Part shown: piece after piece, positions 92 to 32,495 of the stretch
How positions within the stretch are numbered: position 1 is the first letter of the stretch
Layout of the letters: each line of letters starts with the position of its first letter
Source: a virus
Taxonomy: Duplodnaviria > Caudoviricetes
Length of the DNA stretch: 32,495 nucleotides
Virus record (IMG/VR): IMGVR_UViG_3300032212_000108
Location: 1-32,495 of that record
Strand: one strand, 5' to 3'
Position numbers and translations under genes: made by a program
Notes under the pieces: model-generated
The model's database searches: none
What the model was told of the DNA's origin: nothing
What the model saw: the letters and a program-made list of their open reading frames with translations, nothing else

Positions 92-106
92 GTGACCCCC
101 ACATTA

Positions 107-166: not shown

Positions 167-168
167 GG

Positions 169-5116: not shown

Positions 5117-5117
5117 T

Positions 5118-6458: not shown

Positions 6459-7069
6459 TAGAAAAGCCCCACTCCAATCCTCCTAGAAATGTCCTGCAAT
6501 TCTGCGATGATTTTTTCCTCTTGCGCCCTTATGTATTCGGGGTCTTGCCGCCTCTGCTCATCTAGCACCCTCTGGGCTTCCTGCTCATCTCTCATACCTG
6601 TAAGGGCTTGTTGTGACGTTGTGAACTGTGGCATTTGCGTATCAAACGGGGCCATATTTACTTGTTGCTGATATGGCTGGAAGGCCGAGTAATCTACCGG
6701 CTGACCCATCAAGGCCGCCTGAACTTGAGACATACCGCCTATTAATTGCTGTTGTGCGCCTACATTGCCTTGCTGAAAAGCGCCAATCTGTTGCGGCCCT
6801 AGCTGCCTTAGAAGGGCATAGGCGGCTTCGTTGCCTGCAAGAATGTTACCTTCAGCACCACCAAAAAGCGCCTCACTAGACCGCTCTGCCTTTGCAGATT
6901 GCGACTCTATAAACGCCTGTGCTCGATCATTTGCCGCGACTTGACCGCGCTGCGCGCTGGTATCCGGCTTATTCAGCATTGAGCTAAGCGCCACGCCGCC
7001 CACCGTCGCTGCTAATGTTGGTATCATTGGGCTAAGCGCGCCGCCCACCGTCGCTGCTACTGTTGGCAT
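6458..7069 (-). CDS. DNA ejection protein, P22 gp7-like position
   Basis: Hydrophobic Gly/Ala N-terminus followed by Q/A-rich helices; synteny. Confidence 0.55.
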   Translation of the reverse strand: MPTVAATVGGALSPMIPTLAATVGGVALSSMLNKPDTSAQRGQVAANDRAQAFIESQSAKAERSSEALFGGAEGNILAGNEAAYALLRQLGPQQIGAFQQGNVGAQQQLIGGMSQVQAALMGQPVDYSAFQPYQQQVNMAPFDTQMPQFTTSQQALTGMRDEQEAQRVLDEQRRQDPEYIRAQEEKIIAELQDISRRIGVGLF

Positions 7070-7070
7070 C
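6976..7070. repeat. Imperfect tandem duplication (~48 nt unit) of the 5' end of the gp7-like gene
   Basis: cgccgcccaccgtcgctgcta(a/c)tgttgg(t/c)atc occurs twice; protein reads MPTVAATVGGALSPM / IPTLAATVGGVALSSM. Confidence 0.8.
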
Positions 7071-7542
7071 TTAAATACTCCTCTACCTCGTCGCGGGTTA
7101 TTCCATAATTTTCCATGTCTACAATTTCCCCGCCTTTTAAGTAGCTTTTACGGTTTGTACCTTCGTGCTTAAACCCGAAATATTTAACGTATTTTATCAC
7201 GTTACCGTACAAAGCCGGAACGCTCGTGACAAATTTCTGACACTCATCGGGTAAGTTGTCAAGCATCCACTTATAGACCTCAATGCCAGCCGTCTTGCTA
7301 TGTTTTGCCCTATATCTAACAAGTATTTGAGCGTGAATCATCATTGTTACGGTGGTCAGTGAATGCAGGAAATACAGTCCGATAATCTCTTCGTCATCAA
7401 CAACAACTAGCCATACATCTTTCTCAACATCTGGATTGAAATCAATTGGCCTTTGCCCGTCCTCTGAAACGGTGTCGAATATCTCAGGGGTAGACATAAA
7501 ACATCGAACAAACTCTTCGTTGTATGTCCTTTCGACTATCAT
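7057..7542 (-). CDS. GNAT-fold acetyltransferase-like virion assembly protein (P22 gp14-like position)
   Basis: FGFKHEGTNRKSYLKGGEIVDMENYGI is a RimJ/GNAT-like C-terminal motif; synteny. Confidence 0.65.
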   Translation of the reverse strand: MIVERTYNEEFVRCFMSTPEIFDTVSEDGQRPIDFNPDVEKDVWLVVVDDEEIIGLYFLHSLTTVTMMIHAQILVRYRAKHSKTAGIEVYKWMLDNLPDECQKFVTSVPALYGNVIKYVKYFGFKHEGTNRKSYLKGGEIVDMENYGITRDEVEEYLRCQQ

Positions 7543-7793
7543 GCTAGTTTCCAGCCCTGGGATTTGTCGCCGCTAATGTCGGCCAGCATCTTGATATAAT
7601 GAATCGACCCTGCTGCCGCTGTGGTGTCGTAGTAGCTAGAATACTGCAAAGCCTCTACAACACCCTCAGGGCTTCCCTCTCCAGTGTGAGGGATAAGGTT
7701 CGTTAGAATGGCTTGAAGCTCCCTGAACGGCTGTGCCATTGTCCCGTCCATATTAATGATGGGTTGCGTGGCGTTTAATACACGACGATTCAA
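7539..7793 (-). CDS. Small tail/virion protein (P22 gp26 position)
   Basis: GEGSPEGVVEA..YYDT..YIK..GW motif seen in phage tail proteins; follows the gp10-like gene. Confidence 0.5.
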   Translation of the reverse strand: MNRRVLNATQPIINMDGTMAQPFRELQAILTNLIPHTGEGSPEGVVEALQYSSYYDTTAAAGSIHYIKMLADISGDKSQGWKLA

Positions 7794-9241
7794 CTTGCAG
7801 CCCTCATATCAGCCGTCAGCTGGATTATCGACGTATCTACAGCGTCAGCAAGCGTAAACTTAAGCACAGCAATGCGGGGGATTCGGCCATTCCTGCGCCA
7901 TACTGCCCGACGCTTGTAATCGCCTATGCCGCCGATTGATCTTGCTCGCTCATCTCTAAATGTTTTGCCGCCATTCAGGCTGATAGCCATTGAAACCTTA
8001 GGGTCCACAACATCCGCATTGCCTGCGCCTGATTCAACCGTTAGCTCAATCATCGGGATTGTGAATGCTTGCATGTTATTTTGAAACGGCTGGCTCGATA
8101 CTGTTCTGATTATGCCAGAGCCATATTCATCAAGTGCCGACTTGCATAGTTTGCCAATTCGGCCATCAATAGAATCGCCGATAATAGTCATGCCGTAAGC
8201 ATTCACGACTGAATTAGCCCTGAATCTTACCGACTGCTTACCGCCTGCTGCTGTGGAAAACGCGCTCTTTCTTTCGTGCCACCGTCCTGTTATAGCGTCT
8301 ATAACCAGTGTCGTGTTCGGTAGCGAGAAGCCAACAAAGTACGCGCCCTTCTCAGCATACGACCAAGCAAAGGCTTGATTTAGCTCGTCACTACTAAAGT
8401 CCTGTAGGACATTGTCAATAGCCGTTGTGCTGACCTTTTCAACAGTATTGCCAGCCAGCTGCCAGATTGCCGGGGATTCATTTTTACCACCGCCGATCCA
8501 CATAAAGGTATCGTTTGACTCGATCAGTGATAATGGAGACTTAACCCCTTTTGACAGATACAGCCCTGACCTTTGGAATGGGAAGTCAGCGCCGCCGATA
8601 TTCTGGAACCCTTCGCCTGTGACTGAACCCATTATGAATAACTGGTTCTTGAAAACAAAAGGCGCAACAGTATCATCAGGGTTGGCCTCAGCCGATCCAA
8701 AGTCCAAAGCGTTGTAGCTTAGCCCGTCATTAAGGGCTGAAATAATGAATTTCTTGGAATCAGTTGTGATGACAAAATAACCATCAATAAACACAACGTA
8801 TTGAGGCTGTCCGTTTGCAGTGAAATCTGCATCAGTTATCTGGGTAAGTGTGTCGGGCGATTCCGTGAATACGTATCCATTGCCGCCAGGGACAAGAATA
8901 AACAGCTGCGTCCCGTTGTCTGCCATTGATACACGGCCTGAGCCTGATATAGCGCCTAGATTTGTTGTTGTGTACGTGCTGCCAGATTCGTTAAGCCGAT
9001 ACAGCGAACCGCCGTTAACAAAGTACGGCTTGCCATTTAACACCCAAGCGCCACGATTGGCTTGATTGACTGTGCCGGTTGTGGCTAATTGTTCAGCCCC
9101 AGGCGTTCTGAATAGCGTTTCTGTTGCTAATGCTGGAGCCTGTGGAGCGTTTACATACCAATTGACACATTCCTGAGCTGATATCGGGAGGGAATCAGAC
9201 AGGTAGAAGCCGTTAGTGATTGGCAGCTGGGTGATTGGCAT
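7790..9241 (-). CDS. Packaged DNA stabilization protein / tail hub (P22 gp10-like)
   Basis: 483 aa; GSGRVSMADNG, FIDGYFV, AEANPD and WHER motifs typical of the P22 gp10 family. Confidence 0.85.
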   Translation of the reverse strand: MPITQLPITNGFYLSDSLPISAQECVNWYVNAPQAPALATETLFRTPGAEQLATTGTVNQANRGAWVLNGKPYFVNGGSLYRLNESGSTYTTTNLGAISGSGRVSMADNGTQLFILVPGGNGYVFTESPDTLTQITDADFTANGQPQYVVFIDGYFVITTDSKKFIISALNDGLSYNALDFGSAEANPDDTVAPFVFKNQLFIMGSVTGEGFQNIGGADFPFQRSGLYLSKGVKSPLSLIESNDTFMWIGGGKNESPAIWQLAGNTVEKVSTTAIDNVLQDFSSDELNQAFAWSYAEKGAYFVGFSLPNTTLVIDAITGRWHERKSAFSTAAGGKQSVRFRANSVVNAYGMTIIGDSIDGRIGKLCKSALDEYGSGIIRTVSSQPFQNNMQAFTIPMIELTVESGAGNADVVDPKVSMAISLNGGKTFRDERARSIGGIGDYKRRAVWRRNGRIPRIAVLKFTLADAVDTSIIQLTADMRAAS

Positions 9242-9663
9242 TAATCAGCACCGTCATAAAAGCGGTCAAGCGTAGATGCGTCGATGTCGTTGCCGCCCCC
9301 TCTTGGTAGTGTGTCTGGGTATTCAACCGCAACAATAGTCCGGCCTAGCCTTCTCATGGCGTTCATGCCGTCTTTGGCTGCAACAACAAGCCCTTGGGAT
9401 ATTTCGCCGCCGTAATCAGGGGCAACACGAATGGCCATATTGGCAACCAGCCCGTCAATAGCCCCGGCGTCGATGGTTATCGTGTCGCCAACATTTGTAA
9501 CGTCTGTATAGCCTAAGTCAGTGCCTCGGGCCTTTAAAGACGCCATGAAGTTGTTCATGTCAAAGATGAAATCGGCGTATTCGTCAGCCTCTAGCGGGGC
9601 CTCGCTTCCTTGTACGAGTATTCTTTGAAGCGCTGCCTTTGCTACTTGTGCCGCTGTCGTCAT
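9241..9663 (-). CDS. Head-tail adaptor (P22 gp4-like)
   Basis: MTT..AL..I, NMAIRVAPDYG and LPRGGGN motifs of the gp4 family; start placed at MTTAAQ. Confidence 0.8.
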   Translation of the reverse strand: MTTAAQVAKAALQRILVQGSEAPLEADEYADFIFDMNNFMASLKARGTDLGYTDVTNVGDTITIDAGAIDGLVANMAIRVAPDYGGEISQGLVVAAKDGMNAMRRLGRTIVAVEYPDTLPRGGGNDIDASTLDRFYDGAD

Positions 9664-9769
9664 TAGATTTAGCCTCTTTACGTTTCCAACCAAGGGACTC
9701 TACATATTCAATAGTTGCAGGCCGGTCGTTGGTTTCAATCTCGTTACCGTTGGGTTTAATCCATTTCAT
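9584..9769 (-). CDS. Small conserved protein downstream of the coat gene
   Basis: MKWIKPNGNEIETND..LGWKR with AGAGG RBS; occupies the usual post-capsid position. Confidence 0.5.
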   Translation of the reverse strand: MKWIKPNGNEIETNDRPATIEYVESLGWKRKEAKSNDDSGTSSKGSASKNTRTRKRGPARG

Positions 9770-10268
9770 TCCAATACCTCTTTTCAGCTTCAACTCTAGC
9801 ATTGATAGCGTCTTGCTTCTCTTTGAAGGAGCCTAGGCTAATCATTTTACCATTAACCTTTATCCTAGCTCTCCATTTCCCAGAATCCTTCCTGAAGACA
9901 ATACCGCTTTTCCCGCTTGTGTTGGTACTGTGCCGCTTCTGGTTCCACCCATTTTGGGCGTGTGTCACCTCTCTAAGGTTGCGCCACCTGTTGTCCAAGC
10001 TATCGCCGTTAATATGGTCTACTTCTAGCGGCTGCTTTCCTGTCATTATCACCCAAGCCAGCCTGTGGACATAAATATGACTCCCATCGAAATAAGTCCT
10101 AAGATAAGGCTTCTTGATGTGTTTAACCGTCTGCTCATGCCTATATCCGACATCATCGCCAACCTTTTTTGTGCTTCCTACTAATATCGTTCTTAGCGAA
10201 AGCTTCCCAGTATCTGGATCGTAATTATATTTCTCTCTAACTCTATCTACATCTATCAGCTTCTTCAT
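9756..10268 (-). CDS. Free-standing HNH homing endonuclease with C-terminal AP2 DNA-binding domain
   Basis: YDPDTG; HRLAW..VDHINGDSLDNRWRNLREVTHAQN (HNH_3); NTSGKSGI..KWRARI..SLGSF..A..AR (AP2). Confidence 0.92.
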   Translation of the reverse strand: MKKLIDVDRVREKYNYDPDTGKLSLRTILVGSTKKVGDDVGYRHEQTVKHIKKPYLRTYFDGSHIYVHRLAWVIMTGKQPLEVDHINGDSLDNRWRNLREVTHAQNGWNQKRHSTNTSGKSGIVFRKDSGKWRARIKVNGKMISLGSFKEKQDAINARVEAEKRYWNEMD

Positions 10269-20104: not shown

Positions 20105-20132
20105 ATTATAGCCCATCTAGCGGGCTATTCAA
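20105..20132 (-). promoter_or_regulatory. Candidate late-operon promoter TTGAAT-16-TATAAT with overlapping inverted repeat ATAGCCC-N7-GGGCTAT
   Basis: Read directly on the minus strand upstream of the 20077 gene. Confidence 0.6.
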
Positions 20133-20548
20133 TGGCCTAATAACTCTGGCGCATTCTCGACGCACCACGCCTCCAATTCCTTAAACGCCTCAAAATAATC
20201 GGGCTTTTGTATCTTGTGCTTATTGCTTGAGCACCATTCCCACGTTTCAGGCTTGTGCTTTTGAACCCATTCTGCGAACGCCAGCGGCGCTCCGTGAGCC
20301 GATAGCTTATTGCAAAACTTGTGATGCTTTGAACATAGCCCTATCCCGTTTTCTATGCTGTGCCTCGTTGCTGTGTTGGCCCTGGAAATGAGATGGTGTG
20401 CTTCCACGCTCCCGGCGCATTCGTCATCGATAGCGCATTGTTTATAGATTTCATGGATGACTTTACCCCAAAGCGCATCAGCTTTCGTTTTCCAATACTT
20501 AGATCTCGGATTATCCTTTTTCTTTTGTAGATTGCTTTTCTTCTTCAT
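20129..20548 (-). CDS. NinG/Rap-like HNH nuclease
   Basis: ADALW..CAI..C..EAHHLISR..TRHSIENGIGLCSKHH. Confidence 0.75.
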   Translation of the reverse strand: MKKKSNLQKKKDNPRSKYWKTKADALWGKVIHEIYKQCAIDDECAGSVEAHHLISRANTATRHSIENGIGLCSKHHKFCNKLSAHGAPLAFAEWVQKHKPETWEWCSSNKHKIQKPDYFEAFKELEAWCVENAPELLGH

Positions 20549-20589: not shown

Positions 20590-20630
20590 GTGGTTTTCTG
20601 CCCCACTTTTGGGTCTATTCGTTGTTATAT
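20590..20630 (+). other. Candidate attI-like cassette insertion site no. 1 (crossover G20624|TT)
   Basis: GTGGTTTTC-N16-CTATTCGTTG|TTATAT; same motif as 25996-26037; no attC hairpin. Confidence 0.6.
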
Positions 20631-21082
20631 TGCCTAATCCCGGCCTAGTAAATTAACCGCTCGCTTTGACTGAGTAGGTTTTGTTGGCATTGTTTTGTAC
20701 TCCCACCACTCACTCCCGTCATACTCATGTCGCTCTATCCAAAAGTCAGCCCCAACTACGATAAGATCTTCTGGTATCTCTGCACCACCAAATCCAGAAT
20801 CATACTCAATATTAAATAGTGCCTGTATGTCGCAGTCAAAAACGAATTTATCATTCCCGAACCACAGGATGTCAAATATTGTTTTCCCGTTCTCCTCTAA
20901 AACTTCCCTAGTATCTTCCAGTAAGTTGTTCATCAATCAATCCTCTTGTGTAACCGGCAAATATAACAATCAAATTCAACGCGGACTGTGTGCCGCGTGG
21001 CTTCGTTTAAATTACTTTCTTTTCGTCTACCATTTTAGCCCCCTTAAAGTTCATCGATGCACACATCCGGTTAATTTGGTCG
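20625..21082 (+). mobile_element. Solitary integron-type gene cassette (gene inverted relative to attC)
   Basis: Starts G|TTATATTGCC; its attC begins GGCAAATATAAC (complementary to that start) and ends in G|TTAAAC. Confidence 0.8.
20634..20936 (-). CDS. Conserved hypothetical phage protein (cassette cargo)
   Basis: YDSGFGGAEI..DLIVVG.DFWIERHEYDGSEWWEY; GAGGA RBS. Confidence 0.8.
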   Translation of the reverse strand: MMNNLLEDTREVLEENGKTIFDILWFGNDKFVFDCDIQALFNIEYDSGFGGAEIPEDLIVVGADFWIERHEYDGSEWWEYKTMPTKPTQSKRAVNLLGRD

Positions 21083-21088
21083 TTAAAC
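20961..21088 (+). repeat. attC-like site (solo)
   Basis: R'' ATATAAC, 5 nt, L'' AATTCAAC, CGGACTGTGTGC...GCACACATCCG, L' GTTAATT, 5 nt, R' GTTAAAC. Confidence 0.85.
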
Positions 21089-21547
21089 CTTCCCTTCCCG
21101 GCTCAACATATAATCAAGCCTCTCACCGTTGTTGTTGAATGGTTTTTTGCCGTCAACATAAAGCGGCTTGTGCCCTTTCGCCTCTACACCCTGCGCCCGG
21201 TATTGCTTGTGCCCTTCCCATGTTTCAGCGCATTCGGGACAGTATAGTTTTGTCTTCTTGCCGACCTTTGTTTCTGTGACAGGACCAACATTGCAGCAGT
21301 TTTGATTCTCACAACAACCTCTGACCCACACTCGATTATCTTCAATGTCGTCATGCACCTGCTTGACCAGATCGGTATTGCCGTCGATTAAATCAGCTTC
21401 GCACTGCTTGCAGATATTCCGCGTTCCGCCTGGCACCTTCTTTGGCGTGCCTTTCTCGCTGATGTTCTTGTACTGCTGGCATGTTTCGCATCTGAATTCA
21501 TTTGACATTTCCTTGATCTCCTTGATTGAATCTCTACTTTTGCACAT
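21083..21547 (-). CDS. Cys-rich zinc-binding hypothetical protein
   Basis: Multiple CxxC motifs; stop codon coincides with G|TTA. Confidence 0.7.
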   Translation of the reverse strand: MCKSRDSIKEIKEMSNEFRCETCQQYKNISEKGTPKKVPGGTRNICKQCEADLIDGNTDLVKQVHDDIEDNRVWVRGCCENQNCCNVGPVTETKVGKKTKLYCPECAETWEGHKQYRAQGVEAKGHKPLYVDGKKPFNNNGERLDYMLSREGKV

Positions 21548-24232: not shown

Positions 24233-24421
24233 CTATTCCCATTTCTTAGTATTGGCAACGCGCCACATTTGGCCAGTGATTCTTCTCAGGTTCGCCATGT
24301 CTCGTTCGCTGATCTTGTCTTCGAGGAACTTGTACAAGTCTAGCCGGGATTGCTCCAGCTTTTCCAGCTCAAGGACTGGGACTGGTATTTTTTTAGTCAT
24401 AGCTTCCCCCTTGTAGGGCAT
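24233..24421 (-). CDS. Hypothetical protein
   Basis: Probable start MTKK at 24400 with GGGG RBS; overlaps the upstream stop. Confidence 0.55.
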   Translation of the reverse strand: MPYKGEAMTKKIPVPVLELEKLEQSRLDLYKFLEDKISERDMANLRRITGQMWRVANTKKWE

Positions 24422-24540
24422 TCGCCCTTTAGCCGTTCTGTCACGTACCGCACGAGCCGTTCTTCCTGCTCCGGGCGTATGTGTACCATTATTGATTTAG
24501 TCAGCCCTCGGGCCTTACGGGCCGCCCTTGTCTCTCGCAT
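24397..24540 (-). CDS. Small basic putative DNA-binding protein (ribbon-helix-helix-like)
   Basis: MRETRAARKARGLTKSIMVHIRPEQEERLVRYV; AAGGA RBS. Confidence 0.5.
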   Translation of the reverse strand: MRETRAARKARGLTKSIMVHIRPEQEERLVRYVTERLKGECPTRGKL

Positions 24541-24556
24541 TCCTTGGGCTTTGGAT

Positions 24557-24760
24557 TTAGGCATTAGGCGCAGCACTAGGCAAGCATTTAGCGCAAAAGT
24601 CCGAATCAACAGCTTTCAGTAATTCCGCTTCACTGGCAGCGATATACCGAGTAGCACGCCTTGACTGACCGCTATGATTGCAATTTGAGACCGTTTCACC
24701 AGTGCAGATGTGATATTTGCCGCCTCTGTTTGATTTTCCTATGTATTGATTCGCGTTCAT
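24557..24760 (-). CDS. Hypothetical Cys/His protein
   Basis: GGAG RBS; HIC..CNH..CAKC. Confidence 0.6.
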   Translation of the reverse strand: MNANQYIGKSNRGGKYHICTGETVSNCNHSGQSRRATRYIAASEAELLKAVDSDFCAKCLPSAAPNA

Positions 24761-24796
24761 CTTCTTGATCTCCGGTTTGTCTCTGAATGTGTAACT

Positions 24797-24825
24797 ACTG
24801 TGGACTAGGTAACTGTTACTGTCAA
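24797..24825 (-). promoter_or_regulatory. Promoter TTGACA-17-CACAGT with palindromic operator GTAAC-A-GTTAC
   Basis: Perfect -35, weak -10; palindrome at 24809-24819. Confidence 0.55.
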
Positions 24826-24847
24826 TGGAATTATGATGCTAAAGACG

Positions 24848-24870
24848 AAAAAAACCCCGAACTAGCGGGG
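24848..24870 (-). terminator. Rho-independent terminator
   Basis: CCCCG-CTAGTT-CGGGG followed by T7 on the minus strand. Confidence 0.75.
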
Positions 24871-25037
24871 CAAGGCGTGGGAGATGTAGGGAGGGTGGGC
24901 CGGGAATTGATACCCGGTTAAGCCGATCAAGGAAAACAACCCACCATAATGCTTGCCTAGTTAATATACCCCAGCTAGGCGCTGGTACGTTATCACCACT
25001 ATATGCCCAGTGGCAGGCAGTTGAAATACTTTAGCGG

Positions 25038-25316
25038 TTAAGCTTCGTCTTGTAAAGGCTTCATGTACTGGCCTATGCAAATCTGTCTTGCGTACGCTGC
25101 TGTGACTTCAAACTTTTCACCGATTTCCCGATACGTGAACTTCTTCCCGTTCGGCTTGCGCTCTTTTCGTAGCGCTCTCATTAGCTCTGCGTCGTAATGC
25201 GTGAGTTTATCGCCCGACCTTTGGCCTTCGATGGGCCAATGTTTGCACCCTGTCTTGTAGCCTGTGGGGCTGTCGAATATTAGCGTTCCACATTCTGAAC
25301 ATTGAAAATGGCTCAT
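25038..25316 (-). CDS. Zinc ribbon plus HTH DNA-binding protein
   Basis: CSEC..C and KLT....FTYREIGEKFEVTAAYARQI. Confidence 0.7.
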   Translation of the reverse strand: MSHFQCSECGTLIFDSPTGYKTGCKHWPIEGQRSGDKLTHYDAELMRALRKERKPNGKKFTYREIGEKFEVTAAYARQICIGQYMKPLQDEA

Positions 25317-25741
25317 TTCTCACCTCTGTATTTCAGGTCTTCAGGGTTAATCAACGCATATTCACCAGTCATATTGAGCCATTCAACGCAATGATGTTCT
25401 AGTAATTCAAGATACCCGCACAGCTCCTTGTTAGTCATTTTGCTGGTGCGTGCTCTCTGCGCTATTTGCTCCCCGTTTATTCCTGTTCGATACTCCAGCG
25501 GAAGCAATAGCTCCACAAGCTCATCGTGAATATCCTCAGACTTAACATGAATGCCTCGCGTCTCGAATAGCATTTTTTTAACCTGCCCGTACCAGTACCA
25601 CATAAGCCGATTAAGGGCAGCACTTCTATTATCAGACCAATCGTCAACCGTCACCTTTAGCGGCCCTGGCGCACGCTCTTTGATGTGCTCTATACAGAAT
25701 TTAAAGCTGTTCTTGCCCTGTATTTTAAATGTACGCTTCAT
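25313..25741 (-). CDS. ninB: NinB/Orf family recombination protein
   Basis: RSAALNRLMWYW...RTSKMTNKELCGYLELLE is a NinB/YbcN-type signature. Confidence 0.75.
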   Translation of the reverse strand: MKRTFKIQGKNSFKFCIEHIKERAPGPLKVTVDDWSDNRSAALNRLMWYWYGQVKKMLFETRGIHVKSEDIHDELVELLLPLEYRTGINGEQIAQRARTSKMTNKELCGYLELLEHHCVEWLNMTGEYALINPEDLKYRGEK

Positions 25742-25995: not shown

Positions 25996-26037
25996 GTAGT
26001 TTTCGTTTGAACTGGTTATCCCTATTCGTTGTTAGCT
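25996..26037 (+). other. Candidate attI-like site no. 2 at the head of the main array (crossover G26031|TT)
   Basis: GTAGTTTTC-N17-CTATTCGTTG|TTAGCT; matches 20590-20630. Confidence 0.6.
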
Positions 26038-26283
26038 GTACTGCCTTTCCTCATAGTAGGGGCGCAACCTAAATGTAAAGCACAGTACAAGTAGGTATGG
26101 CTCTCCGTGATTCCATCTCATTCTTGGAATCCAGTTCCACCACAAGAGGTGCATATCAAATTGAAACTTAAAGCCCTCAATTCGGCGTCCGTTATACTTT
26201 CCACGAGGCCAGCTAACAATACGCTTGTTCCGACCTGCTACGTCGGCGGTTGCTTTAAGTTTATCGGTTTCGCTCATCTTCAT
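26032..26283 (-). CDS. Hypothetical Trp-rich protein (cassette 1); starts inside the attC loop
   Basis: GAGGA RBS at 26286-26290 and the ATG both lie within attC 26211-26331; stop at G|TTA. Confidence 0.7.
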   Translation of the reverse strand: MKMSETDKLKATADVAGRNKRIVSWPRGKYNGRRIEGFKFQFDMHLLWWNWIPRMRWNHGEPYLLVLCFTFRLRPYYEERQYS

Positions 26284-26331
26284 ATTCCTCAGTGGTTTCG
26301 TTTCCGCAGTCGGCACAGCTGGCTGTTATGC
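26211..26331 (+). repeat. attC-like site 1
   Basis: AGCTAAC-AATAC-GCTTGTTC-CGACCTGC...GCAGTCG-GCACAGC-TGGCT-GTTATGC. Confidence 0.75.
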
Positions 26332-26874
26332 AGCAAATGCGTAGCTCTCAGGTAATATTAAGCGTACAAAGGTTCTATTGTGTGTTTCGGCGGCTGGGAT
26401 AGTTTCATGCACCATAGAAACATTCCCCACATAAACTTGGTTAGGCTTCAAAACATGAACCGTAGCGTGCGATAAATCCATGTGAGAGCAATCACCGCCC
26501 TCACCGATGTCATCAGCAAATTCACCTTCGTATGCCTTAGCTCCGATTTGATCGGAAGCAAGAATAATCCCGCCACCAGCGCAATCCTTAGTTATCCAAC
26601 TTGGTCCAGTATCCCATCCAGCAATTGTGTAAACGCCATCAATGTGCGCCCCGCCTCTGCGATGCGTAGTGCCTTTTTCAACCTCACCCTGATCAATCGT
26701 CATGTAAATAACATCGTCGGCATCAACGCCGTCTAACATAGAGTCAACGGTATCTTGCCAGCGCGAATACTGCTCTGGTAACTTCTCGCCTTTCTTAAAA
26801 GGCACCATGTATGCACGTTCTTTTGTGAACTCGGGGAAGGTAACTACGTTTCCGGTTTTTAATAGGCTTTTCAT
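26326..26874 (-). CDS. Putative 2OG-Fe(II) dioxygenase-fold protein (cassette 2)
   Basis: HIDG (HxD), distal HE and RTFVRL; double-stranded beta-helix pattern. Confidence 0.6.
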   Translation of the reverse strand: MKSLLKTGNVVTFPEFTKERAYMVPFKKGEKLPEQYSRWQDTVDSMLDGVDADDVIYMTIDQGEVEKGTTHRRGGAHIDGVYTIAGWDTGPSWITKDCAGGGIILASDQIGAKAYEGEFADDIGEGGDCSHMDLSHATVHVLKPNQVYVGNVSMVHETIPAAETHNRTFVRLILPESYAFAA

Positions 26875-26903
26875 GTCGTAATCCTCTAGTTAGAAGTGTT
26901 GCT

Positions 26904-27025
26904 GCATAACAATAGGGTCGAAATGACCCACTACCGCAGCGTTTAATTAAAAGTTTCTAGTGTTCGTTTACTTCTGTGCTTCCCGTGGCTCCGTTGCCGT
27001 GGGCATCTCACCCTAAGCGTTATAT
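26904..27025 (+). repeat. attC-like site 2
   Basis: GCATAAC-AATAG-GGTCGAAATGACCCAC...GTGGGCATCTCACC-CTAAGC-GTTATAT. Confidence 0.8.
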
Positions 27026-27289
27026 TTCTTTAGTTACTGGCTCGGCCTCATCCCAGTGCAGGTATACGTGCAGCTCTTCCCGTAGCCGCATCATGTCCTT
27101 CATACTCTCTATGCCATTGAAAGAAACCTTGTTAACTAATGGCTTTATCTGTTCGCGTAATTTAGCCTCAAAATCAACCATCTCTTTTTTCACTATCTCT
27201 TCGGTTACTGCTTTTTTTACCTCTCGCTCCAGCCCTGTTTTCAGTAGTTCCACCATGTTCAAATTTGCATTTGCAATAGCCATAATCAA
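27020..27289 (-). CDS. Hypothetical protein (cassette 3)
   Basis: GAGGA RBS; stop at G|TTA. Confidence 0.75.
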   Translation of the reverse strand: MIMAIANANLNMVELLKTGLEREVKKAVTEEIVKKEMVDFEAKLREQIKPLVNKVSFNGIESMKDMMRLREELHVYLHWDEAEPVTKEI

Positions 27290-27302
27290 TTCCTCAGTAA
27301 AA

Positions 27303-27363
27303 ATATAACAACGGCATCAAATCCGATGCTCGTACCTCGCACGGCTTATGCCGGGCGTTATGC
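27303..27363 (+). repeat. attC-like site 3 (61 bp)
   Basis: ATATAAC-AACGG-CATCAAAT-CCGATGC...GCACGG-CTTATG-CCGGGC-GTTATGC. Confidence 0.88.
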
Positions 27364-27405
27364 CGCTCTCGGCTTATGCGTTGAGCGGCGCTAAATGGAT
27401 GCCAA

Positions 27406-27600
27406 TCAAAAAGCAGCAATGCGCTGCCAAAGAATCTCTGAGTATTGCCACATGATGTCGTTTTGCAATTTCATGCGCTCCTGCTCTTCGGGGTCAAGAT
27501 CATCGAACAGAGGGCTATTGCCAATAAACTCACTAAGCGCGGTGGCTTTTTGGTCAAGTTCGTTTTTCTCGTCAACTACTCGTTGTTGGTATGGCTGCAT
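27406..27600 (-). CDS. Small conserved phage protein (crAss001_48-like; cassette 4)
   Basis: MQPYQQRVVDEKNELDQK..L..F...L...EQ..M..Q...M..YS.IL..RIA.F pattern; GGAG RBS. Confidence 0.7.
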   Translation of the reverse strand: MQPYQQRVVDEKNELDQKATALSEFIGNSPLFDDLDPEEQERMKLQNDIMWQYSEILWQRIAAF

Positions 27601-27623
27601 ATCATTTGCTCCAGTGTAAAGCG

Positions 27624-27747
27624 GCATAACAAAGCGCATTAACTCGGACACATGCCGCAGTGTCCGGCGCTCAATTTTAGTTAAATGTTTACGGCTTTCT
27701 TTTCAAATTCATCGTTGGCATGCGCTCGGTTATGCGTAACGTTATAC
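27624..27747 (+). repeat. attC-like site 4
   Basis: GCATAAC-AAAGC-GCATTAAC-TCGGACACATGCC...GGCATGCGCTCG-GTTATGC-GTAAC-GTTATAC. Confidence 0.82.
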
Positions 27748-28524
27748 GGCATGTCTGGCTTCAAACTGTGCCTCGGCCTCTTCTCGGTTTGCGTGGTCAT
27801 TTACGCACAGCACTCCGCACTCAATATCAGGCATAGGGACATTGCGGCCCGCATTGGGGTCTAGCTCATCCAAAAACACCCGCTTCCGCTTGCCGTCACC
27901 GGCATAAGTTTTATTTATGGCTACATTCATTTTCCGCTCTTGTTTTGCCATCTTCTCGAAAGCGTCAGGAAAATCAAATCTTATCTTGTTCCAGTATCCT
28001 GCCTGCCCTTTTATACATCCAATGCAGTTGTTATTGTTGTAACCCAGTTTATACATTGCAGGTAACTCAATCCCGGCCTGCTGCAAGATACGGTAACAAT
28101 CTTTTTTCACTATCCCGGCTTCCTGCAATACCCACTCAACCTCCAGCTCCGGATTTTGATCTTCGAATCGATCAATTCGTTTTTCTTCATCGGCAGTAAG
28201 TCCAAAAATGTGTACGTCATCTTCTAATTGGTAGGCTTTGCGCACATTCTTTTTTAGCTCTGTTGTGCATCGTGCGCCACCGACGCCGATCAGCCAGCCG
28301 GTTTTATCAAACACATCATAGATGTCTGAGTATTTTTCTGACTTAAGCAGTTTTATATCCTTGCCTAACCAGCTTTCAACGTCACGCAAAAATCTTATAT
28401 TGTCGTCATGCTCATAGGCGAGAGTGTCACAATACAAAACCTCTGCATCAGGATACTTTTCAAGCGCCATCTTTGCTGCAACAGCAGAGGCAGCCCCACA
28501 ACTAAACCATACTAGGTGTCTCAT
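27742..28524 (-). CDS. Phage PAPS-reductase-like (adenine nucleotide alpha hydrolase) protein (cassette 5)
   Basis: WFSCGAASAVA PP-loop-like motif; CTTELK; MYKLGYNNNNCIGCIKG; C-terminal ECGVLC. Confidence 0.8.
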   Translation of the reverse strand: MRHLVWFSCGAASAVAAKMALEKYPDAEVLYCDTLAYEHDDNIRFLRDVESWLGKDIKLLKSEKYSDIYDVFDKTGWLIGVGGARCTTELKKNVRKAYQLEDDVHIFGLTADEEKRIDRFEDQNPELEVEWVLQEAGIVKKDCYRILQQAGIELPAMYKLGYNNNNCIGCIKGQAGYWNKIRFDFPDAFEKMAKQERKMNVAINKTYAGDGKRKRVFLDELDPNAGRNVPMPDIECGVLCVNDHANREEAEAQFEARHAV

Positions 28525-28541
28525 AATTCCTCCTAAATGCC

Positions 28542-28614
28542 GTATAACCAGCGGTTCAACGGCGACATTCGCCGCGCTGGCGCTTACTCATGCGCGTTAA
28601 CCTTCACGTTATGT
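28542..28614 (+). repeat. attC-like site 5
   Basis: GTATAAC-CAGCG-GTTCAAC...GTTAAC-CTTCAC-GTTATGT. Confidence 0.85.
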
Positions 28615-28615
28615 T

Positions 28616-28903
28616 TCATAATTTCTTCCGCGCAATAATCCGTCTAATAACTGAATTGTGTTTATCCATTGCGCCGATTTGTTGCGCCTTGGTTGTCGGT
28701 GGTGTAAACGCCTTCCATAAACCTATCAATGCTTGTTCAGTTTCTATTAAGCGGTCATTCAGCACTTTGATTTCCACCGTTTGTTCATCCAGCCGTAAGG
28801 CTGCTTCATTGCAAGCGCCATTTGCTACGCCATCATCACACTGGATTGTTCTCCCCAGTTCGTACATTGCGCCGCTAATCACTCGTGTTTCTACTCGTTT
28901 CAT
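28616..28903 (-). CDS. Hypothetical protein (cassette 6)
   Basis: GGAG RBS; L..TIQCDDGVANGACNEAA.RL. Confidence 0.75.
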   Translation of the reverse strand: MKRVETRVISGAMYELGRTIQCDDGVANGACNEAALRLDEQTVEIKVLNDRLIETEQALIGLWKAFTPPTTKAQQIGAMDKHNSVIRRIIARKKL

Positions 28904-28918
28904 GTTTCACTCCAAAAA

Positions 28919-28985
28919 ACATAACAACCGCTTTCACTCGGACATGCGCAAAAGACGCGCCTGCCGGTGAAGCGGAGCGTTATAC
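28919..28985 (+). repeat. attC-like site 6
   Basis: ACATAAC-AACCG-CTTTCAC-TCGGACATGCGC...GCGCCTGCCG-GTGAAG-CGGAGC-GTTATAC. Confidence 0.88.
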
Positions 28986-29219
28986 GTCAGGCTTATCCGT
29001 GCATTTGCGGTTAAGCCCGTCGCACCGAAGCCCCTTACCGCTCATTGTTGAATAAAAGCCAGGGTTAGCGCCACACCAAGAGCATCTTCCAGCGCTCCAT
29101 TTCAGAAGCTTTCTGCCTGTTCTCAGCATCTTTGCTCCGCACCACGTAACCGAATTTCTTATAAATGCTCCGGCTTTGGTGTTCCAAAGAAAGTTATGTC
29201 TAATCGCATCAGTGTTCAT
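28980..29219 (-). CDS. Hypothetical Cys-containing protein (cassette 7, gene 2)
   Basis: Start MNTDAI with GAGGAG RBS and TAATG coupling; stop at G|TTA. Confidence 0.65.
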   Translation of the reverse strand: MNTDAIRHNFLWNTKAGAFIRNSVTWCGAKMLRTGRKLLKWSAGRCSWCGANPGFYSTMSGKGLRCDGLNRKCTDKPDV

Positions 29220-29341
29220 TATTCCGGCTCCTCTGTTTCGTTGCCGCAAATTGGGCATTCTGTTTCGCCAGCAACAAGCTGACATTCGTCGTCGCATGTC
29301 TGGCAATAAACTAAAACTATGTCGTCAGGGTCACAAAGCAT
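29219..29341 (-). CDS. 40-aa zinc-finger microprotein (cassette 7, gene 1; absent from ORF track)
   Basis: Manual translation MLCDPDDIVLVYCQTCDDECQLVAGETECPICGNETEEPE; two CxxC; TAATG overlap with the next gene. Confidence 0.65.
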   Translation of the reverse strand: MLCDPDDIVLVYCQTCDDECQLVAGETECPICGNETEEPE

Positions 29342-29358
29342 TGCTCATACCTCCAAAC

Positions 29359-29418
29359 GTATAACAATAAAAATTCAGTCGGACGCAAAAACCGCGCCGC
29401 TGATTTTTGGCGTTAGGC
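29359..29418 (+). repeat. attC-like site 7 (60 bp)
   Basis: GTATAAC-AATAA-AAATTCAG-TCGGACGC...GCGCCG-CTGATTT-TTGGC-GTTAGGC. Confidence 0.88.
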
Positions 29419-29419
29419 G

Positions 29420-29662
29420 TCATAAAGGGACACCATCACCATCAAACCATGTATCCGGGTCATCGCCAAATAATCGCTTTCTTGAGCTAACGAAAGCATC
29501 CCATTTAGTTATTGCTGTGTACGGATAATCACATGGCTCGTTTTGCATCCATGCTCTCATCATCTGTAATCGAGCGCCGCGCTGTCCACAACATTTGGCT
29601 AACCGAGATATTTCTTCTGCGCACTCTCCATGTATATCGGCATCTGGTTCTATATCAAACAT
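29420..29662 (-). CDS. Hypothetical protein (cassette 8)
   Basis: AGGAG RBS; QRGARLQMMR..WFDGDGVP. Confidence 0.75.
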   Translation of the reverse strand: MFDIEPDADIHGECAEEISRLAKCCGQRGARLQMMRAWMQNEPCDYPYTAITKWDAFVSSRKRLFGDDPDTWFDGDGVPL

Positions 29663-29684
29663 TTTTATATCTCCTGTTAAAATC

Positions 29685-29747
29685 GCCTAACAATTGCATT
29701 AACGCGGACGCAAAACAGCTTTGCGCCGGTTATGCTGGTCGTTATAT
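29685..29747 (+). repeat. attC-like site 8 (63 bp)
   Basis: GCCTAAC-AATTG-CATTAAC-GCGGACGCAAA...TTTGCGCCG-GTTATG-CTGGTC-GTTATAT. Confidence 0.9.
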
Positions 29748-29948
29748 TTCTCTCCGGCACATCAGCAACGCCAAAGCTTTTTTGCTGAGTAGCAAATGAG
29801 CTTCAACACTAGCGGCGATGTAGTCGGGCACTTTTCCGCGAGTGCCCCATCCTTTGTATGTACTTAAGCCTACCGCTAACAGTTTAGCCATTTGCTCCTC
29901 GGTGAGGCCAAGCCCGTTCCTGACCTCTGTTAGTTTTCCAAAATTCAT
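29742..29948 (-). CDS. XRE-family HTH transcriptional regulator (cassette 9, gene 3)
   Basis: LTEVRNGLGLTEEQMAKLLAVGLSTYKGW. Confidence 0.8.
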   Translation of the reverse strand: MNFGKLTEVRNGLGLTEEQMAKLLAVGLSTYKGWGTRGKVPDYIAASVEAHLLLSKKALALLMCRREI

Positions 29949-30160
29949 TTAAACCCATACCGTTTTAAAACACCTGTGATTTCCTGATTAGGACTCCCCA
30001 CGTATTTGCATGCATTTTCAATAGATTCTCGGCTGGCGATGTTGAAATTTGCGAATTCAAAGCCGCCTTGTTGTTGGCATTCTCTGTGAAGCTCACTCTC
30101 TCCGCCATCATCCTCGCCCCAGATAGTTGTCATGCCGACATTTCCTTTTTTAACTTTCAT
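29945..30160 (-). CDS. Hypothetical protein (cassette 9, gene 2)
   Basis: AGGAG RBS; ATGA overlap with the HTH gene. Confidence 0.7.
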   Translation of the reverse strand: MKVKKGNVGMTTIWGEDDGGESELHRECQQQGGFEFANFNIASRESIENACKYVGSPNQEITGVLKRYGFK

Positions 30161-30172
30161 ATCTAATCACTC

Positions 30173-30565
30173 CTATTTGTAAACGTAGCAAACAAATTCA
30201 CCTTCAAATCCTGCCGGTACAACGCCGGTGTCGATTTGGTGCTGAGTTGGTTTCCATGGTTTGCCGTGCTCTAAACCGTATTGCTCGGCGTGATACAGGC
30301 TAGTTACATAACGCTGTTTTTGTTCGGTTTGCTCGGCAGCCTCTTGTTTGGCTGACTCCAGCTCGCTCAGCATGTCTAGAATTTCAGCAATTTTTGCTTT
30401 GCCAGGCTTTCTCATTGGCTCTACTACAACGCTGTTGTTCTCAACGGTTACGTAGATGGTGTCACCCGTAATTGCGTGAGCTGATTTACGGATGGCCTCT
30501 TTGTCGGCACTTTCAATTGTTGCTGTGAAAACAAACTCGCCGTCGATTCGTGTAGTAGTTGCCAT
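30173..30565 (-). CDS. Hypothetical protein (cassette 9, gene 1)
   Basis: AAGGA RBS downstream of a strong promoter. Confidence 0.75.
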   Translation of the reverse strand: MATTTRIDGEFVFTATIESADKEAIRKSAHAITGDTIYVTVENNSVVVEPMRKPGKAKIAEILDMLSELESAKQEAAEQTEQKQRYVTSLYHAEQYGLEHGKPWKPTQHQIDTGVVPAGFEGEFVCYVYK

Positions 30566-30609
30566 TTTCTTTTTTCCTTGTTGGTCGCTTTTATCTCTAA
30601 CTTGTAAAT

Positions 30610-30638
30610 ATTATAGTACGCAATGCGTACCAATGCAA
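30610..30638 (-). promoter_or_regulatory. Sigma70 promoter TTGCAT-17-TATAAT with a perfect palindromic operator GTACGCA-N-TGCGTAC in the spacer
   Basis: Read directly; palindrome at 30616-30630. Confidence 0.8.
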
Positions 30639-30665
30639 GGATTATTTAAGCACCAAACAAAAGAA

Positions 30666-30736
30666 ATATAACAAAGCAATTGAGCGCGACCATCCCTCGC
30701 GGTGCTCGGTCTGTCGCCTCATTGCAACCGTTAGAT
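30666..30736 (+). repeat. attC-like site 9
   Basis: ATATAAC-AAAGC-AATTGAG-CGCGAC...GTCGC-CTCATT-GCAACC-GTTAGAT. Confidence 0.85.
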
Positions 30737-30739
30737 TGC

Positions 30740-31117
30740 TTATCGGTGTCCCCACTGATGGCCGCAATCGTGGCAAAGCTCATAATCAGCTTCAGGTAAT
30801 GCGAATGATACATTAGCGCCAGTCGTCGCCCATTCTTCACTTTCGCACTTCGGGCAAACCGCTTTAATAATCCTGTGAGAATCAATCCAGTATTTACCAG
30901 TCTTGCCTTGCACTCTAATTTTCATTTCATATTTAGAGTGGTCGCAAACAATCGCCTTACGTTCTTCTAGCCCGTGGCGAATGATTAACATCACGCCTTC
31001 TGGATATTCTTGCGCCATTTTCTTGAGCGCTTCTTTTTCAATGTCCTTCATCATCTGTTCCATTTCTCTGAAGGTCTTATTATCAAGTTCACGCCTTAGC
31101 GCTGATCCACCGCTCAT
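30740..31117 (-). CDS. Hypothetical protein with C-terminal zinc ribbon (cassette 10)
   Basis: CPKC...CHDCGHQW; GGAG RBS. Confidence 0.75.
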   Translation of the reverse strand: MSGGSALRRELDNKTFREMEQMMKDIEKEALKKMAQEYPEGVMLIIRHGLEERKAIVCDHSKYEMKIRVQGKTGKYWIDSHRIIKAVCPKCESEEWATTGANVSFALPEADYELCHDCGHQWGHR

Positions 31118-31142
31118 GTCATTACTCCGTAAGTTGGTCGCA

Positions 31143-31230
31143 ATCTAACAAAAGCAATAGAAGCGGACGGTTCGTCCGCAGTGCTTCGTAGCTTGCTTGG
31201 TCATGCCGCCGTTCATTGCTGCCGTTATAC
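31143..31230 (+). repeat. attC-like site 10
   Basis: ATCTAAC-AAAAG-CAATAGAA-GCGGACGG...CCGCCG-TTCATTG-CTGCC-GTTATAC. Confidence 0.85.
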
Positions 31231-31779
31231 CGCACTAGGTAGTTCAGCGGTGCATTCAACCTCGTTGCCCCATGCGTCCCAACCTGCGGTGGTAGTTCTA
31301 GCGAATAGCTCAACTCGTGGCAGATCACCAAAGGTGTCAACAATCATATCTCTAAAAAATGCAGGCTTTTGGCTATGGGCTTCTCTTGGATGGTGCCAGT
31401 GGTTCCCTTTCACTCTTTTTTCTGCTTTTACAGTCCCTTTCCTACAAAACAATAAATATTCATTGGCAAGGGTGAATGTACCGCCCAACCCAATGCCCTT
31501 TGGGGTCTTATCCCACACCAACATGGTGCTTGGCTTAAAACCCCATGCGCGAGCCACTTCGTAGCTTTGCTCTAGGTATTTGTTTATAGTCCAAAGGAAA
31601 AGAACGCAATTTTTATCGGCTATATCTCTTACCGGCAATCCTTTTATTTCATCTAATCCCATCGTTGGATATGTAAGTTTTAAACTACGCTCACTGTCCC
31701 CGCTTTTTCTTCCCTGTTTGCTTCCTGCCATCACTTGCCACGGCGGGTCTGCATAAATTATTTGATATTTCTTTGTCAT
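31225..31779 (-). CDS. MT-A70 family N6-adenine DNA methyltransferase (cassette 11)
   Basis: YQIIYADPPW; YPTM; LFLWT; WGF; HSQKP; RVELFAR..GWDAWGNE. Confidence 0.92.
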   Translation of the reverse strand: MTKKYQIIYADPPWQVMAGSKQGRKSGDSERSLKLTYPTMGLDEIKGLPVRDIADKNCVLFLWTINKYLEQSYEVARAWGFKPSTMLVWDKTPKGIGLGGTFTLANEYLLFCRKGTVKAEKRVKGNHWHHPREAHSQKPAFFRDMIVDTFGDLPRVELFARTTTAGWDAWGNEVECTAELPSAV

Positions 31780-31804
31780 AAATTCTAACTCCAGTGTAAT
31801 TGCG

Positions 31805-31863
31805 GCATAACCAAACCATCAAAACGATGCGCTACCGCGCACGTCTTATGGCAACTGTTATAA
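31805..31863 (+). repeat. attC-like site 11 (59 bp)
   Basis: GCATAAC-CAAAC-CATCAAAA-CGATGCGC-TACC-GCGCACG-TCTTATG-GCAACT-GTTATAA. Confidence 0.85.
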
Positions 31864-32232
31864 CTCTACCAATATCCCCAAGCCCTTAAGTGCGGCGGCT
31901 CGAGTTTCGAGCATGTCATTGGGCATCTGCTCCCACCCGTAAAATGTCTTGCCGTAATAAAGATCGTCACAATTCCGGTCTTCGTCGTTAAGCTCACCTT
32001 TTAAGCGAATCATCTTTTCTTTATAGCTTTCCTGGCCAACCACTTCGTAGTCATCATTGTAAATATCGCAAGGGCCGTCCTCTTCGTCTCTGTCACTCCA
32101 GCAGCCATAGGTTTTCTCTTTATCTAACCACTGATAAACAGTCTCATCATTTTCAGCAAGTACGAAAGTTTCAATTGCTTGATGGCTGTCTTTTTGTGAT
32201 AGGTGCTCAACATCAATTCTGTATAGGTTCAT
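31858..32232 (-). CDS. Acidic hypothetical phage protein (cassette 12)
   Basis: GAGG RBS; stop at G|TTA. Confidence 0.75.
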   Translation of the reverse strand: MNLYRIDVEHLSQKDSHQAIETFVLAENDETVYQWLDKEKTYGCWSDRDEEDGPCDIYNDDYEVVGQESYKEKMIRLKGELNDEDRNCDDLYYGKTFYGWEQMPNDMLETRAAALKGLGILVEL

Positions 32233-32247
32233 CTTTTTTACCTCGAG

Positions 32248-32376
32248 TTATAACAAGGCCGGTCAACTCAGACACACTACCGCGTGGCTTCGTTCTGGCT
32301 CTTGTGTTGGTTTAAGTTCATCGTTTTCAATCGGTTCATAGTTGCGGTAGCGTGCTGGTTACCGGCAACGTTAGCT
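32248..32376 (+). repeat. attC-like site 12
   Basis: TTATAAC-AAGGC-CGGTCAAC-TCAGACACACTACCGC...GCGGTAGCGTGCTG-GTTACCG-GCAAC-GTTAGCT. Confidence 0.85.
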
Positions 32377-32495
32377 GTCATACATTCCAAGCTCTTGGCC
32401 TAATTTTGTTAATTTATCTACAGCTTCAATTTGATCTTTAGTTACCTGCTTATTAACAGCGTCAGCCGCATCACGCAAACATTGTGCAAGCCCAT
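32371..32495 (-). CDS. 3' end of a further probable cassette gene (partial)
   Basis: ...GLAQCLRDAADAVNKQVTKDQIEAVDKLTKLGQELGMYDS* ends exactly at G|TTA. Confidence 0.65.
   Translation of the reverse strand, partial: GLAQCLRDAADAVNKQVTKDQIEAVDKLTKLGQELGMYDS

Follow-up and report, generated by a model that had tools for sequence, protein, structure and literature searches.

Two attC arrays with bottom-strand genes

The stretch of DNA analysed here (the window) is the entire 32,495-bp virus record IMGVR_UViG_3300032212_000108, a tailed-phage genome estimated to be ~91% complete, whose minus strand encodes NinB, a superfamily II helicase and head and tail proteins of the P22 type. Many of its accessory genes lie in two arrays in which imperfect palindromes with the anatomy of integron attC sites alternate with small genes, and we describe here these arrays, the exchange of their genes between strains and the integrases that may serve them. 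An original prediction, made from the sequence alone, had listed twelve such palindromes of 59-129 bp, and all twelve are present at the starts given below; a thirteenth site (20961-21088), which belongs to a separate array of a single cassette (array 1), the attI-like left ends of both arrays and the bottom-strand position of all the genes had been overlooked. In the following list, plus for an attC means that its top strand is the plus strand, the core is the G|TT position, and gene lengths are in amino acids (aa).

20598..20630, plus: attI-like left end of array 1, core 20624, with a short GC-rich inverted repeat ahead of the core
20634..20936, minus: c0 gene, 100 aa, phrog_3972
20961..21088, plus: attC, the thirteenth site, in array 1; its R' contains the stop codon of gene 21083-21547
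21083..21547, minus: 154-aa backbone gene, right bound of array 1, kept in relatives
26005..26037, plus: attI-like left end of array 2, core 26031
26032..26283, minus: c1 gene, 83 aa, stop in the 26031 core
26211..26331, plus: attC, 121 bp, core 26325
26326..26874, minus: c2 gene, 182 aa, phrog_8970, stop in R'
26904..27025, plus: attC, 122 bp, extra bases G16 and T23, core 27019
27020..27289, minus: c3 gene, ~85 aa, no family, stop in R'
27303..27363, plus: attC, 61 bp, core 27357, weakest L pairing (5/7)
27406..27603, minus: c4 gene, crAss001_48 family (PF21825)
27624..27747, plus: attC, 124 bp, core 27741, strain junctions at 27741 and 27745
27742..28524, minus: c5 gene, 260 aa, PAPS-reductase-like (phrog_424), stop in R'
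28542..28614, plus: attC, 73 bp, core 28608
28616..28903, minus: c6 gene, 95 aa, no family
28919..28985, plus: attC, 67 bp, three extra bases, core 28979
28980..29306, minus: c7 coding region, a 79-aa open reading frame (28980-29219, stop in R') and a short upstream open reading frame
29359..29418, plus: attC, 60 bp, core 29412
29420..29662, minus: c8 gene, 80 aa
29685..29747, plus: attC, 63 bp, core 29741
29742..30640, minus: c9, three genes (68-aa helix-turn-helix-like, 71 aa, 130 aa) behind a candidate promoter
30666..30736, plus: attC, 71 bp, core 30730
30740..31117, minus: c10 gene, 125 aa
31143..31230, plus: attC, 88 bp, core 31224
31225..31779, minus: c11 gene, 184 aa, MT-A70 family DNA methyltransferase, stop in R'
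31805..31863, plus: attC, 59 bp, extra bases G16 and T23, core 31857
31858..32232, minus: c12 gene, 124 aa, phrog_25048, stop in R'
32248..32376, plus: attC, 129 bp, core 32370
32371..32495, minus: c13, truncated by the contig end, its open frame stopping at the core TAA

The TAAC and GTTA of the outer boxes are invariant in 13 of 13 sites, with a mean column identity of 41%, and the R'' (RYYYAAC) and R' (GTTRRRY) boxes stand 5 and 5-6 nt from paired L'' and L' boxes. A structure scanner found 9 sites in 26031-32495 compared to a mean of 0.3 (maximum 2) in 100 dinucleotide shuffles, and a second scanner, run over the whole window at score 20, found 7 sites compared to 0.27 in 30 Markov simulations; both were purpose-built and modelled on these sites, and each overlooks some of them. 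Pairing between L'' and L' held in 83 of 91 cells (mean 6.4 of 7) versus 3.6 of 7 when the arms were crossed between sites, and each L''/L' column contains 3-4 distinct pair types, that is, compensatory pairs. Twelve sites lie within 6.2 kb, all with the plus strand on top, which is the arrangement (at least two clustered attC of one polarity) of an attC cluster without integrases (CALIN). An Rfam scan of the window gave zero matches, and our own covariance model had no base pairs and served only as a sequence profile.

As the original prediction had proposed, the bottom strands were folded. The full attC hairpin was the minimum-energy fold for 9 of the 13 minus strands, and the minus strand folded at lower energy than the plus strand at 11 of the sites. 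When pairing of the R box was forced, 11 of 13 sites showed single unpaired bases. These are all in the 3' arm of the folded minus strand, and their distances from the 3' end are 16/17, 20/21 and 23-25 nt. These positions coincide with those of VCR2, attCoxa2 and attCaadA7, for which the available part of PMC5027507 gives the extra bases G16/T20/T24, G16/A20/T24 and G16/T23, respectively. Since the extra bases are one-sided, on the minus-strand 3' arm, the plus strand is the attC top strand. The predicted attC architecture thus stands with respect to the boxes, the stem and the extra bases, but the first extra base is often not G. That the palindromes are terminators, RNase sites or other intergenic RNA signals is extremely improbable: although they are intergenic and a few contain terminator-like stems, nothing in Rfam matches them, the invariant TAAC and GTTA, the fixed spacers and the one-sided extra bases are features of DNA recombination sites, and gene content switches at the cores.

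In bacterial integrons, the cassette gene lies on the attC top strand and is read from the integron promoter Pc. Here, all cassette genes with family matches or ribosome sites are on the bottom strand, and the top-strand, Pc-read layout of a complete integron is absent. The TAA in the core is a stop codon at 10 of 15 cores and, on the minus strand, ribosome sites and starts come after R''; the ribosome site and start of c1 sit within the loop of attC 26211, and a c1 homologue (P0122, 79% identity) has a similar leader. To compare polarity, viral contigs and bacterial genomes were scanned with one motif built from these sites, which gave 45 viral loci and, out of ~800 stretches, 128 bacterial ones. 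The viral intervals comprised 32 inverted, 0 canonical and 14 unclear, from 12 of 45 loci, whereas the same motif in bacteria gave 27 canonical, 3 inverted and 12 unclear intervals, from 19 of 127 loci; intervals of one locus are not independent, and locus L211 was dropped as lying on the same contig as L086. A cruder rule gave canonical to inverted ratios of 3:24 in viruses and 25:8 in bacteria, and two of the three inverted bacterial intervals belong to a prophage (L192). Homologues of c4 and c7 picked by protein alone had an adjoining site in 7 of 25 loci, inverted in 7 of 7, and none in the other 18. Homologues of c5, c7, c8, c10 and c11 occupy inverted cassettes in unrelated phages, including a 43% homologue of c5 in the IntI-coding phage G046, a c8 homologue in L101 and c11 homologues in G004, G012 and L102. 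Under our own scanner, phage TJE1 and Shewanella prophage M16-3 showed canonical polarity. A ribosome site and ATG in the loop that read into the gene were found at 6 of 21 long phage sites versus 0 of 31 long bacterial sites, and in phages G001-G004 the loop start reads through into the gene at 5 of 16 long sites.

These counts bear on the idea that a single capture brought in part of a host's chromosomal integron as a block, which the phage has since carried passively; we consider this idea highly improbable and largely refuted. The attC motif is common in bacterial genomes, with ~800 stretches, and such capture is described for Vibrio and Shewanella prophages in the accessible text of PMC9892861. 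However, the genes here are inverted, against 27 of 30 called bacterial intervals; six of the cassette genes fall in phage families, and the PAPS-reductase-like family of c5 occurs in four cultured phages with attC nearby in none; and there are two arrays, in which strains differ one cassette at a time.

Several further observations concern the sites and their genes. The long attC loops at 20961-21088, 27624-27747 and 32248-32376 contain minus-strand reading frames of 8, 7 and 20 codons, the first with a ribosome site, and these frames resemble trapped gene starts or leader peptides. Upstream of the c9 genes, a candidate minus-strand promoter at 30610-30638 is predicted from a perfect -10 TATAAT at 30610-30615 and a weak -35, with a 17-nt spacer containing a perfect 7-bp inverted repeat as candidate operator, and c9 may be a self-regulated promoter cassette driving the genes leftward of it. 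A sigma-70 promoter scan gave fewer promoters than in shuffles. The c12 gene (31858-32232) is 74% identical over 108 bases to yoqY of Bacillus phage SPbeta, a surprisingly distant relative. Phages G002 (1-9947 and 50292-56348) and G004 (1-4472 and 30241-36152) each have two arrays of opposite polarity with genes pointing outward from the central region, and G002 has at least 20 sites, with near-identical attC copies repeated.

The P22-like character claimed for the phage holds for its P22-type portal, coat, head-completion and ejection proteins but not for genus membership: the portal is 26% identical to Salmonella P22-like portals and 44% to its closest cultured match, Pseudoalteromonas phage H6/1, which indicates a shared module rather than a shared genus. 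No array was found in phage H6/1, nor among portal relatives (~57% identity) in 764 kb of loci or 9 whole records, and thus the arrays do not track the head module. A helicase search gave nothing in viral contigs and the window's own record alone in metagenome contigs. One helicase relative (L111, G001 4351-6921) has a large insertion bearing an intein-type Pfam domain (P0004).

Strain differences at the cassette cores

To examine whether gene content varies at these sites, contigs of five sequencing runs (X1, X2, X5, X6 and X7) were aligned to the region. DNA of the window is present at high depth in one microbial-mat run (X1) and in part in biofilm and marine runs. X1 contains two abundant strains, with depths of ~1,300-1,500 and 1,100-1,200, and the doubling of depth is restricted to the sequence left of 26034 plus c4, c10 and c13. 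The second strain departs from the window sequence at 26034, immediately past the first core, and a minor variant (depth 46) departs at the same position and is back at core 27741. The c4 cassette (27358-27741) is common to both strains; the shared unit spans 27361-27736 and comprises the gene, 49 nt beyond its stop and the entire attC 5' of the gene, and is flanked in X1 by foreign attC letters before 27354 and foreign sequence after 27745. On one X1 contig (depth 1445) c10 leads into c11, and on another (depth 1150) a c10 homologue with ~93% identity and a related attC adjoins the 21082 core, and therefore lies in array 1 in the second strain. Another contig joins 20629 to 32369 through unknown sequence, c13 is common to both strains with a junction at 32369, and a different attC end stands before 30729. 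Different attC ends also stand before 21081-21082 in runs X1, X2 and X5. The relatives in X2, X5, X6 and X7 break at 20627, 21081 and 28976, and in the marine runs X6 and X7 a 99% identical c7 piece begins at 28976.

Among the 27 distinct junction ends listed, 13 fall within -7..+9 of a core, a zone that makes up 3.6% of positions, and 8 others lie inside an attC, placing 21 of 27 at a core or in an attC; the -7..+9 zone was our choice, set after seeing the data, and ends inside an attC may stem from look-alike sites of other phages. A cut-off of 1500 nt and a coverage rule of 0.6, used elsewhere in the analysis, were likewise chosen by us. The breakpoint check that had been proposed for related phages was thus borne out, and the contigs show gain, loss and reordering of cassettes at G|TT. 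Overall, these results support the reading, which we regard as quite probable, that the two integrase-less phage arrays of the window, with their bottom-strand genes, hold cassettes that are moved at G|TT by IntI acting in trans. The earlier suggestion of excisable, exchangeable phage cassettes is upheld by breaks at the G|TT cores, but it did not foresee inverted genes, two arrays or a contig without an integrase.

Some exchange also took place outside the cores. The two halves of attC 29359-29421 were seemingly swapped at L'': in X6 and X7, c7 stands with another attC remainder past 29377, another X6 contig has this attC from 29371 on behind a different R'', and in X2 and X5 the entire site lies between other genes. 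Backbone genes left of the arrays (20129-20548 and 24400-25640) were also swapped between strains, away from attC cores, indicating ordinary mosaicism alongside cassette exchange.

An alternative to exchange by IntI is that the hairpins merely provide linker homology, and that swaps arise by homologous or microhomology recombination (through an annealing protein with the NinB/Orf helper) or by replication slippage. In its favor, NinB is encoded 290 bp to the left of array 2, the junctions inside attC at 29371 and 29377 yield chimeric sites, and five complete or near-complete array-bearing phages have no tyrosine recombinase. However, the sites are only 41% alike per column and yet retain the extra-base geometry and compensatory pairs, for which homology has no need, and foreign sequence reaches up to the core (27354, 28976, 30729 and 21081), leaving 1-3 shared bases to the left of G|TT. 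As a full account linker homology is therefore unlikely. It may nonetheless account for the chimeric sites, and recombination between homologous attC sequences is likely a minor second route of this kind, beside the IntI-driven exchange that we favor.

attI-like left ends and possible sources of an integrase

The left ends of both arrays are non-folding G|TT positions (20624 and 26031) with 13 bases in common. A matrix was built from 26 distinct sites located just upstream of phage intI genes. Out of 606 GTTR sites in the window, it ranks 20624 first and 26031 ninth, which, together with the divergence of strains at both cores, makes these positions candidate attI sites on sequence grounds; with the upstream columns alone, the left ends rank 2 (array 1) and 32 (array 2). 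At array 1, relatives agree up to 20627-20629 and then diverge. The segment 20559-20631 was considered as a decayed attC and rejected, as it has no attC fold. The 13-base motif was absent from the other loci examined.

Within the contig, no integrase lies beside the arrays, as is the case in CALINs; the usual place of intI at array 2, left of attI, is occupied by a 77-aa gene and by NinB, and the right end of the array is truncated. In five other array-bearing phages (G001, G002, G003, G004 and G012) no tyrosine recombinase was found, with no PF00589 or TIGR02249 match in G001 and G002. The latter two have terminal repeats, are complete, encode helicases 51-54% identical to that of the window and share its site family. 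This bears on the notion that the missing part of the genome, ~9%, encodes a recombinase of its own, other than IntI, that reads the sites; it is very unlikely, since the complete relatives G001 and G002 have no such enzyme and since the enzymes that do adjoin this site family are IntI. Of the 17 bacterial genomes that contain this attC motif, 15 have an IntI gene scoring above the TIGR02249 cut-off.

Prophage L192 is located at tRNA-Phe, and in it a phage integrase is followed by IntI (394 bits, cut-off 265) and then by inverted cassettes, all co-oriented. These two genes, an attI and no fewer than five such cassettes form one leftward operon (G036:C2, 913-4740), so that the prophage carries a complete phage integron; two further sites lie ~38 kb away, and the host chromosome has other IntI genes. 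Using the L192 IntI as query identified G045-G048, and of these G046 and G048 are complete phages with IntI, likewise above the TIGR02249 cut-off, directly beside inverted arrays. The catalytic residues are invariant in five aligned IntI. A wider scan took the best 80 of 184 viral loci, a choice biased toward the query, and a total of 83 viral IntI loci were examined after dropping L314 (duplicate of L291) and L295 (partial match): the upstream array was mainly inverted in 21, canonical in 1 and absent or tied in 61, and with the first excluded the intervals were 31 inverted versus 7 canonical. In the IntI-coding phages, the position and direction of intI relative to attI are as in usual integrons. 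A tree made by a quick method, with 13 comparison rows of which two are phage records, showed a viral clade of 16 rows (support 99) that includes L192 together with L291 and L292. Other viral IntIs were scattered over several supported clades, and the tree shows no single origin.

Two further loci are of interest. The putative bin of an Oceanospirillales genome includes an inverted-array phage contig (L211/L086, in G044 and G006) and, on a separate contig, two IntI-like genes in tandem, which makes this a possible host-phage pair. In virus Rctr41k (KX853513), an IntI-like gene annotated xerD (L392, 4680-5678) is co-oriented with small upstream genes, and our scanner at score 18 found no attC upstream of it.

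Since the contig has no integrase, the system would operate in trans. A chromosomal IntI of the host is, tentatively, the source to which we give most weight; IntI from a resident prophage or a co-infecting phage is possible but doubtful, an intI gene in the missing part of this genome is improbable, and the chance of any other source is slight. According to the available text of PMC8946536, IntI is SOS-controlled in many hosts and infection by double-stranded DNA phages can trigger SOS, and PMC11389934 reports, in the part accessible, that CALINs can be mobilised in trans.

Proposed mechanism and comparison with known systems

In the mechanism we propose, a cassette would extend from the TT of one core to the G of the next, and would thus consist of a gene and the attC at its 5' side, with the folded minus strand as the recombining strand. 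New cassettes would enter at the attI-like left ends (20624 and 26031) or at attC sites. Since the genes point leftward, their expression would come from phage promoters on the right, perhaps with the candidate internal one in c9, rather than from an integron Pc. The stop codon comes from the conserved core at 10 of the 15 cores, and a long attC loop can provide the start. The direction of replication, which affects attC folding in the part of PMC5371416 available, may also matter here.

Several points weigh against this interpretation. The contig, ~91% complete, has no IntI and so is no complete integron. Sites 27624 and 28542 favor alternative folds (recombinogenic pairing probability 0.01-0.03), and the first extra base is G in just 4 sites and frequently A. 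As for the exchange itself, 6 of the 27 listed junction ends are neither at a core nor in an attC, and others lie within attC, at 29371 and 29377 (L'' of attC 29359) and at 31149; at 29377 the 99% identical c7 runs into another attC half, for which core exchange alone is insufficient. Many cores are stop codons, which are also breakpoints in ordinary phage mosaicism. Exchange was read from contigs only, with no excised circle or empty site among them, and X1 is possibly the source sample. The order of the window across cassettes that the strains share could also be a mosaic produced by assembly. Finally, the array 2 left end reaches just 32 of 606 on upstream columns, and the matrix gives 10-12 to sites upstream of some bacterial intI genes, and therefore marks attI-likeness rather than a phage or host source of IntI.

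Integrons are regarded as bacterial devices in which the asymmetry of attC places genes under Pc. In the phage arrays described here, genes run the opposite way under this same asymmetry, and the populations give evidence of shuffling. The arrays thereby offer a mechanism, concrete and site-specific, for some of the mosaicism of accessory genes in phages, among them methyltransferases with a possible role against restriction. Host IntI often has anti-phage cassettes, and our results suggest that it may diversify phages too. To our knowledge, the origin of cassettes is an open question; families with and without attC (c4 and c5) and genes that start or stop inside sites provide material on it. 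We further put forward, as a tentative proposal, that phages have their own branch of integrons, with a reverse-polarity pool of phage-gene cassettes across unrelated phages, phage IntI clades with their own attI, and integrase-less phages hitchhiking. If this is true, the reversed layout silences phage cassettes in host integrons and host cassettes in phages, two cassette pools are kept apart under one chemistry, and ordinary genes are turned into cassettes. The layout is testable, as phage PH101 is a cultured phage that has it and phage IntI genes are clonable.

The view that attC sites normally reside on chromosomes, plasmids and transposons, with which the original prediction set out, had already been overtaken, since clusters of attC in phages are published (PMC9892861). 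That study (Qi, Rajabal, Ghaly, Tetu and Gillings, 2023) describes, in its available text, 17 phage CALINs and shows that IntI1 recombined 5 of 6 tested phage sites, including sites of PH101 and TJE1, with the bottom strand preferred. Its phage CALINs (TJE1, PH101, P12002L and MW202573) are likewise intI-less attC clusters with small genes and orphan methyltransferases. They differ in size, with 2-4 sites per phage in its Table S1 compared to 13 in two arrays here, and the available text has no strain-level shuffling and no attI-like end in a virulent phage, with the complete integrons being host- or class 1-derived. TJE1 is canonical, whereas PH101 is inverted by our own check, on which the main text as available does not remark; the PH101 bottom strands assayed there are the strand of its annotated genes, and thus an inverted phage array has already been assayed. 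In a literature search that covered few subscription journals, we found no paper on inverted phage cassette arrays or on phage IntI serving them. Phage CALINs are therefore known (PMC9892861), and the inverted layout and the combination of phage IntI with inverted arrays are what we did not find in the literature.

With attG sites and SALINs (Loot et al., bioRxiv 10.1101/2022.09.11.507474, in the part available), IntI inserts cassettes at non-folding double-stranded sites outside integrons, and an insertion of this kind into the stop codon of a phage gene, as at 21082, could start an array. However, the left ends have 13 bases in common and look like the sites found upstream of intI, and a kept attI therefore fits better than two random attG insertions, which alone leave the inverted genes unexplained. 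The arrays share with bacterial integrons the anatomy of attC, its strand asymmetry, a predicted crossover at G|TT, cassettes of one or few genes and an attI-like site that opens each array at the 5' end of its top strand, but differ in having genes on the bottom strand and no intI in the contig. Because their genes are on the bottom strand, they would be co-oriented with intI and Pc is unusable. Co-orientation of intI with cassette genes is also a feature of the Treponema-type inverted-integrase integrons (PMC4889954, as far as its available text goes); in that type, the integrase is flipped relative to attC, whereas in the phage layout the genes are flipped and the relation of attC to intI is the usual one.

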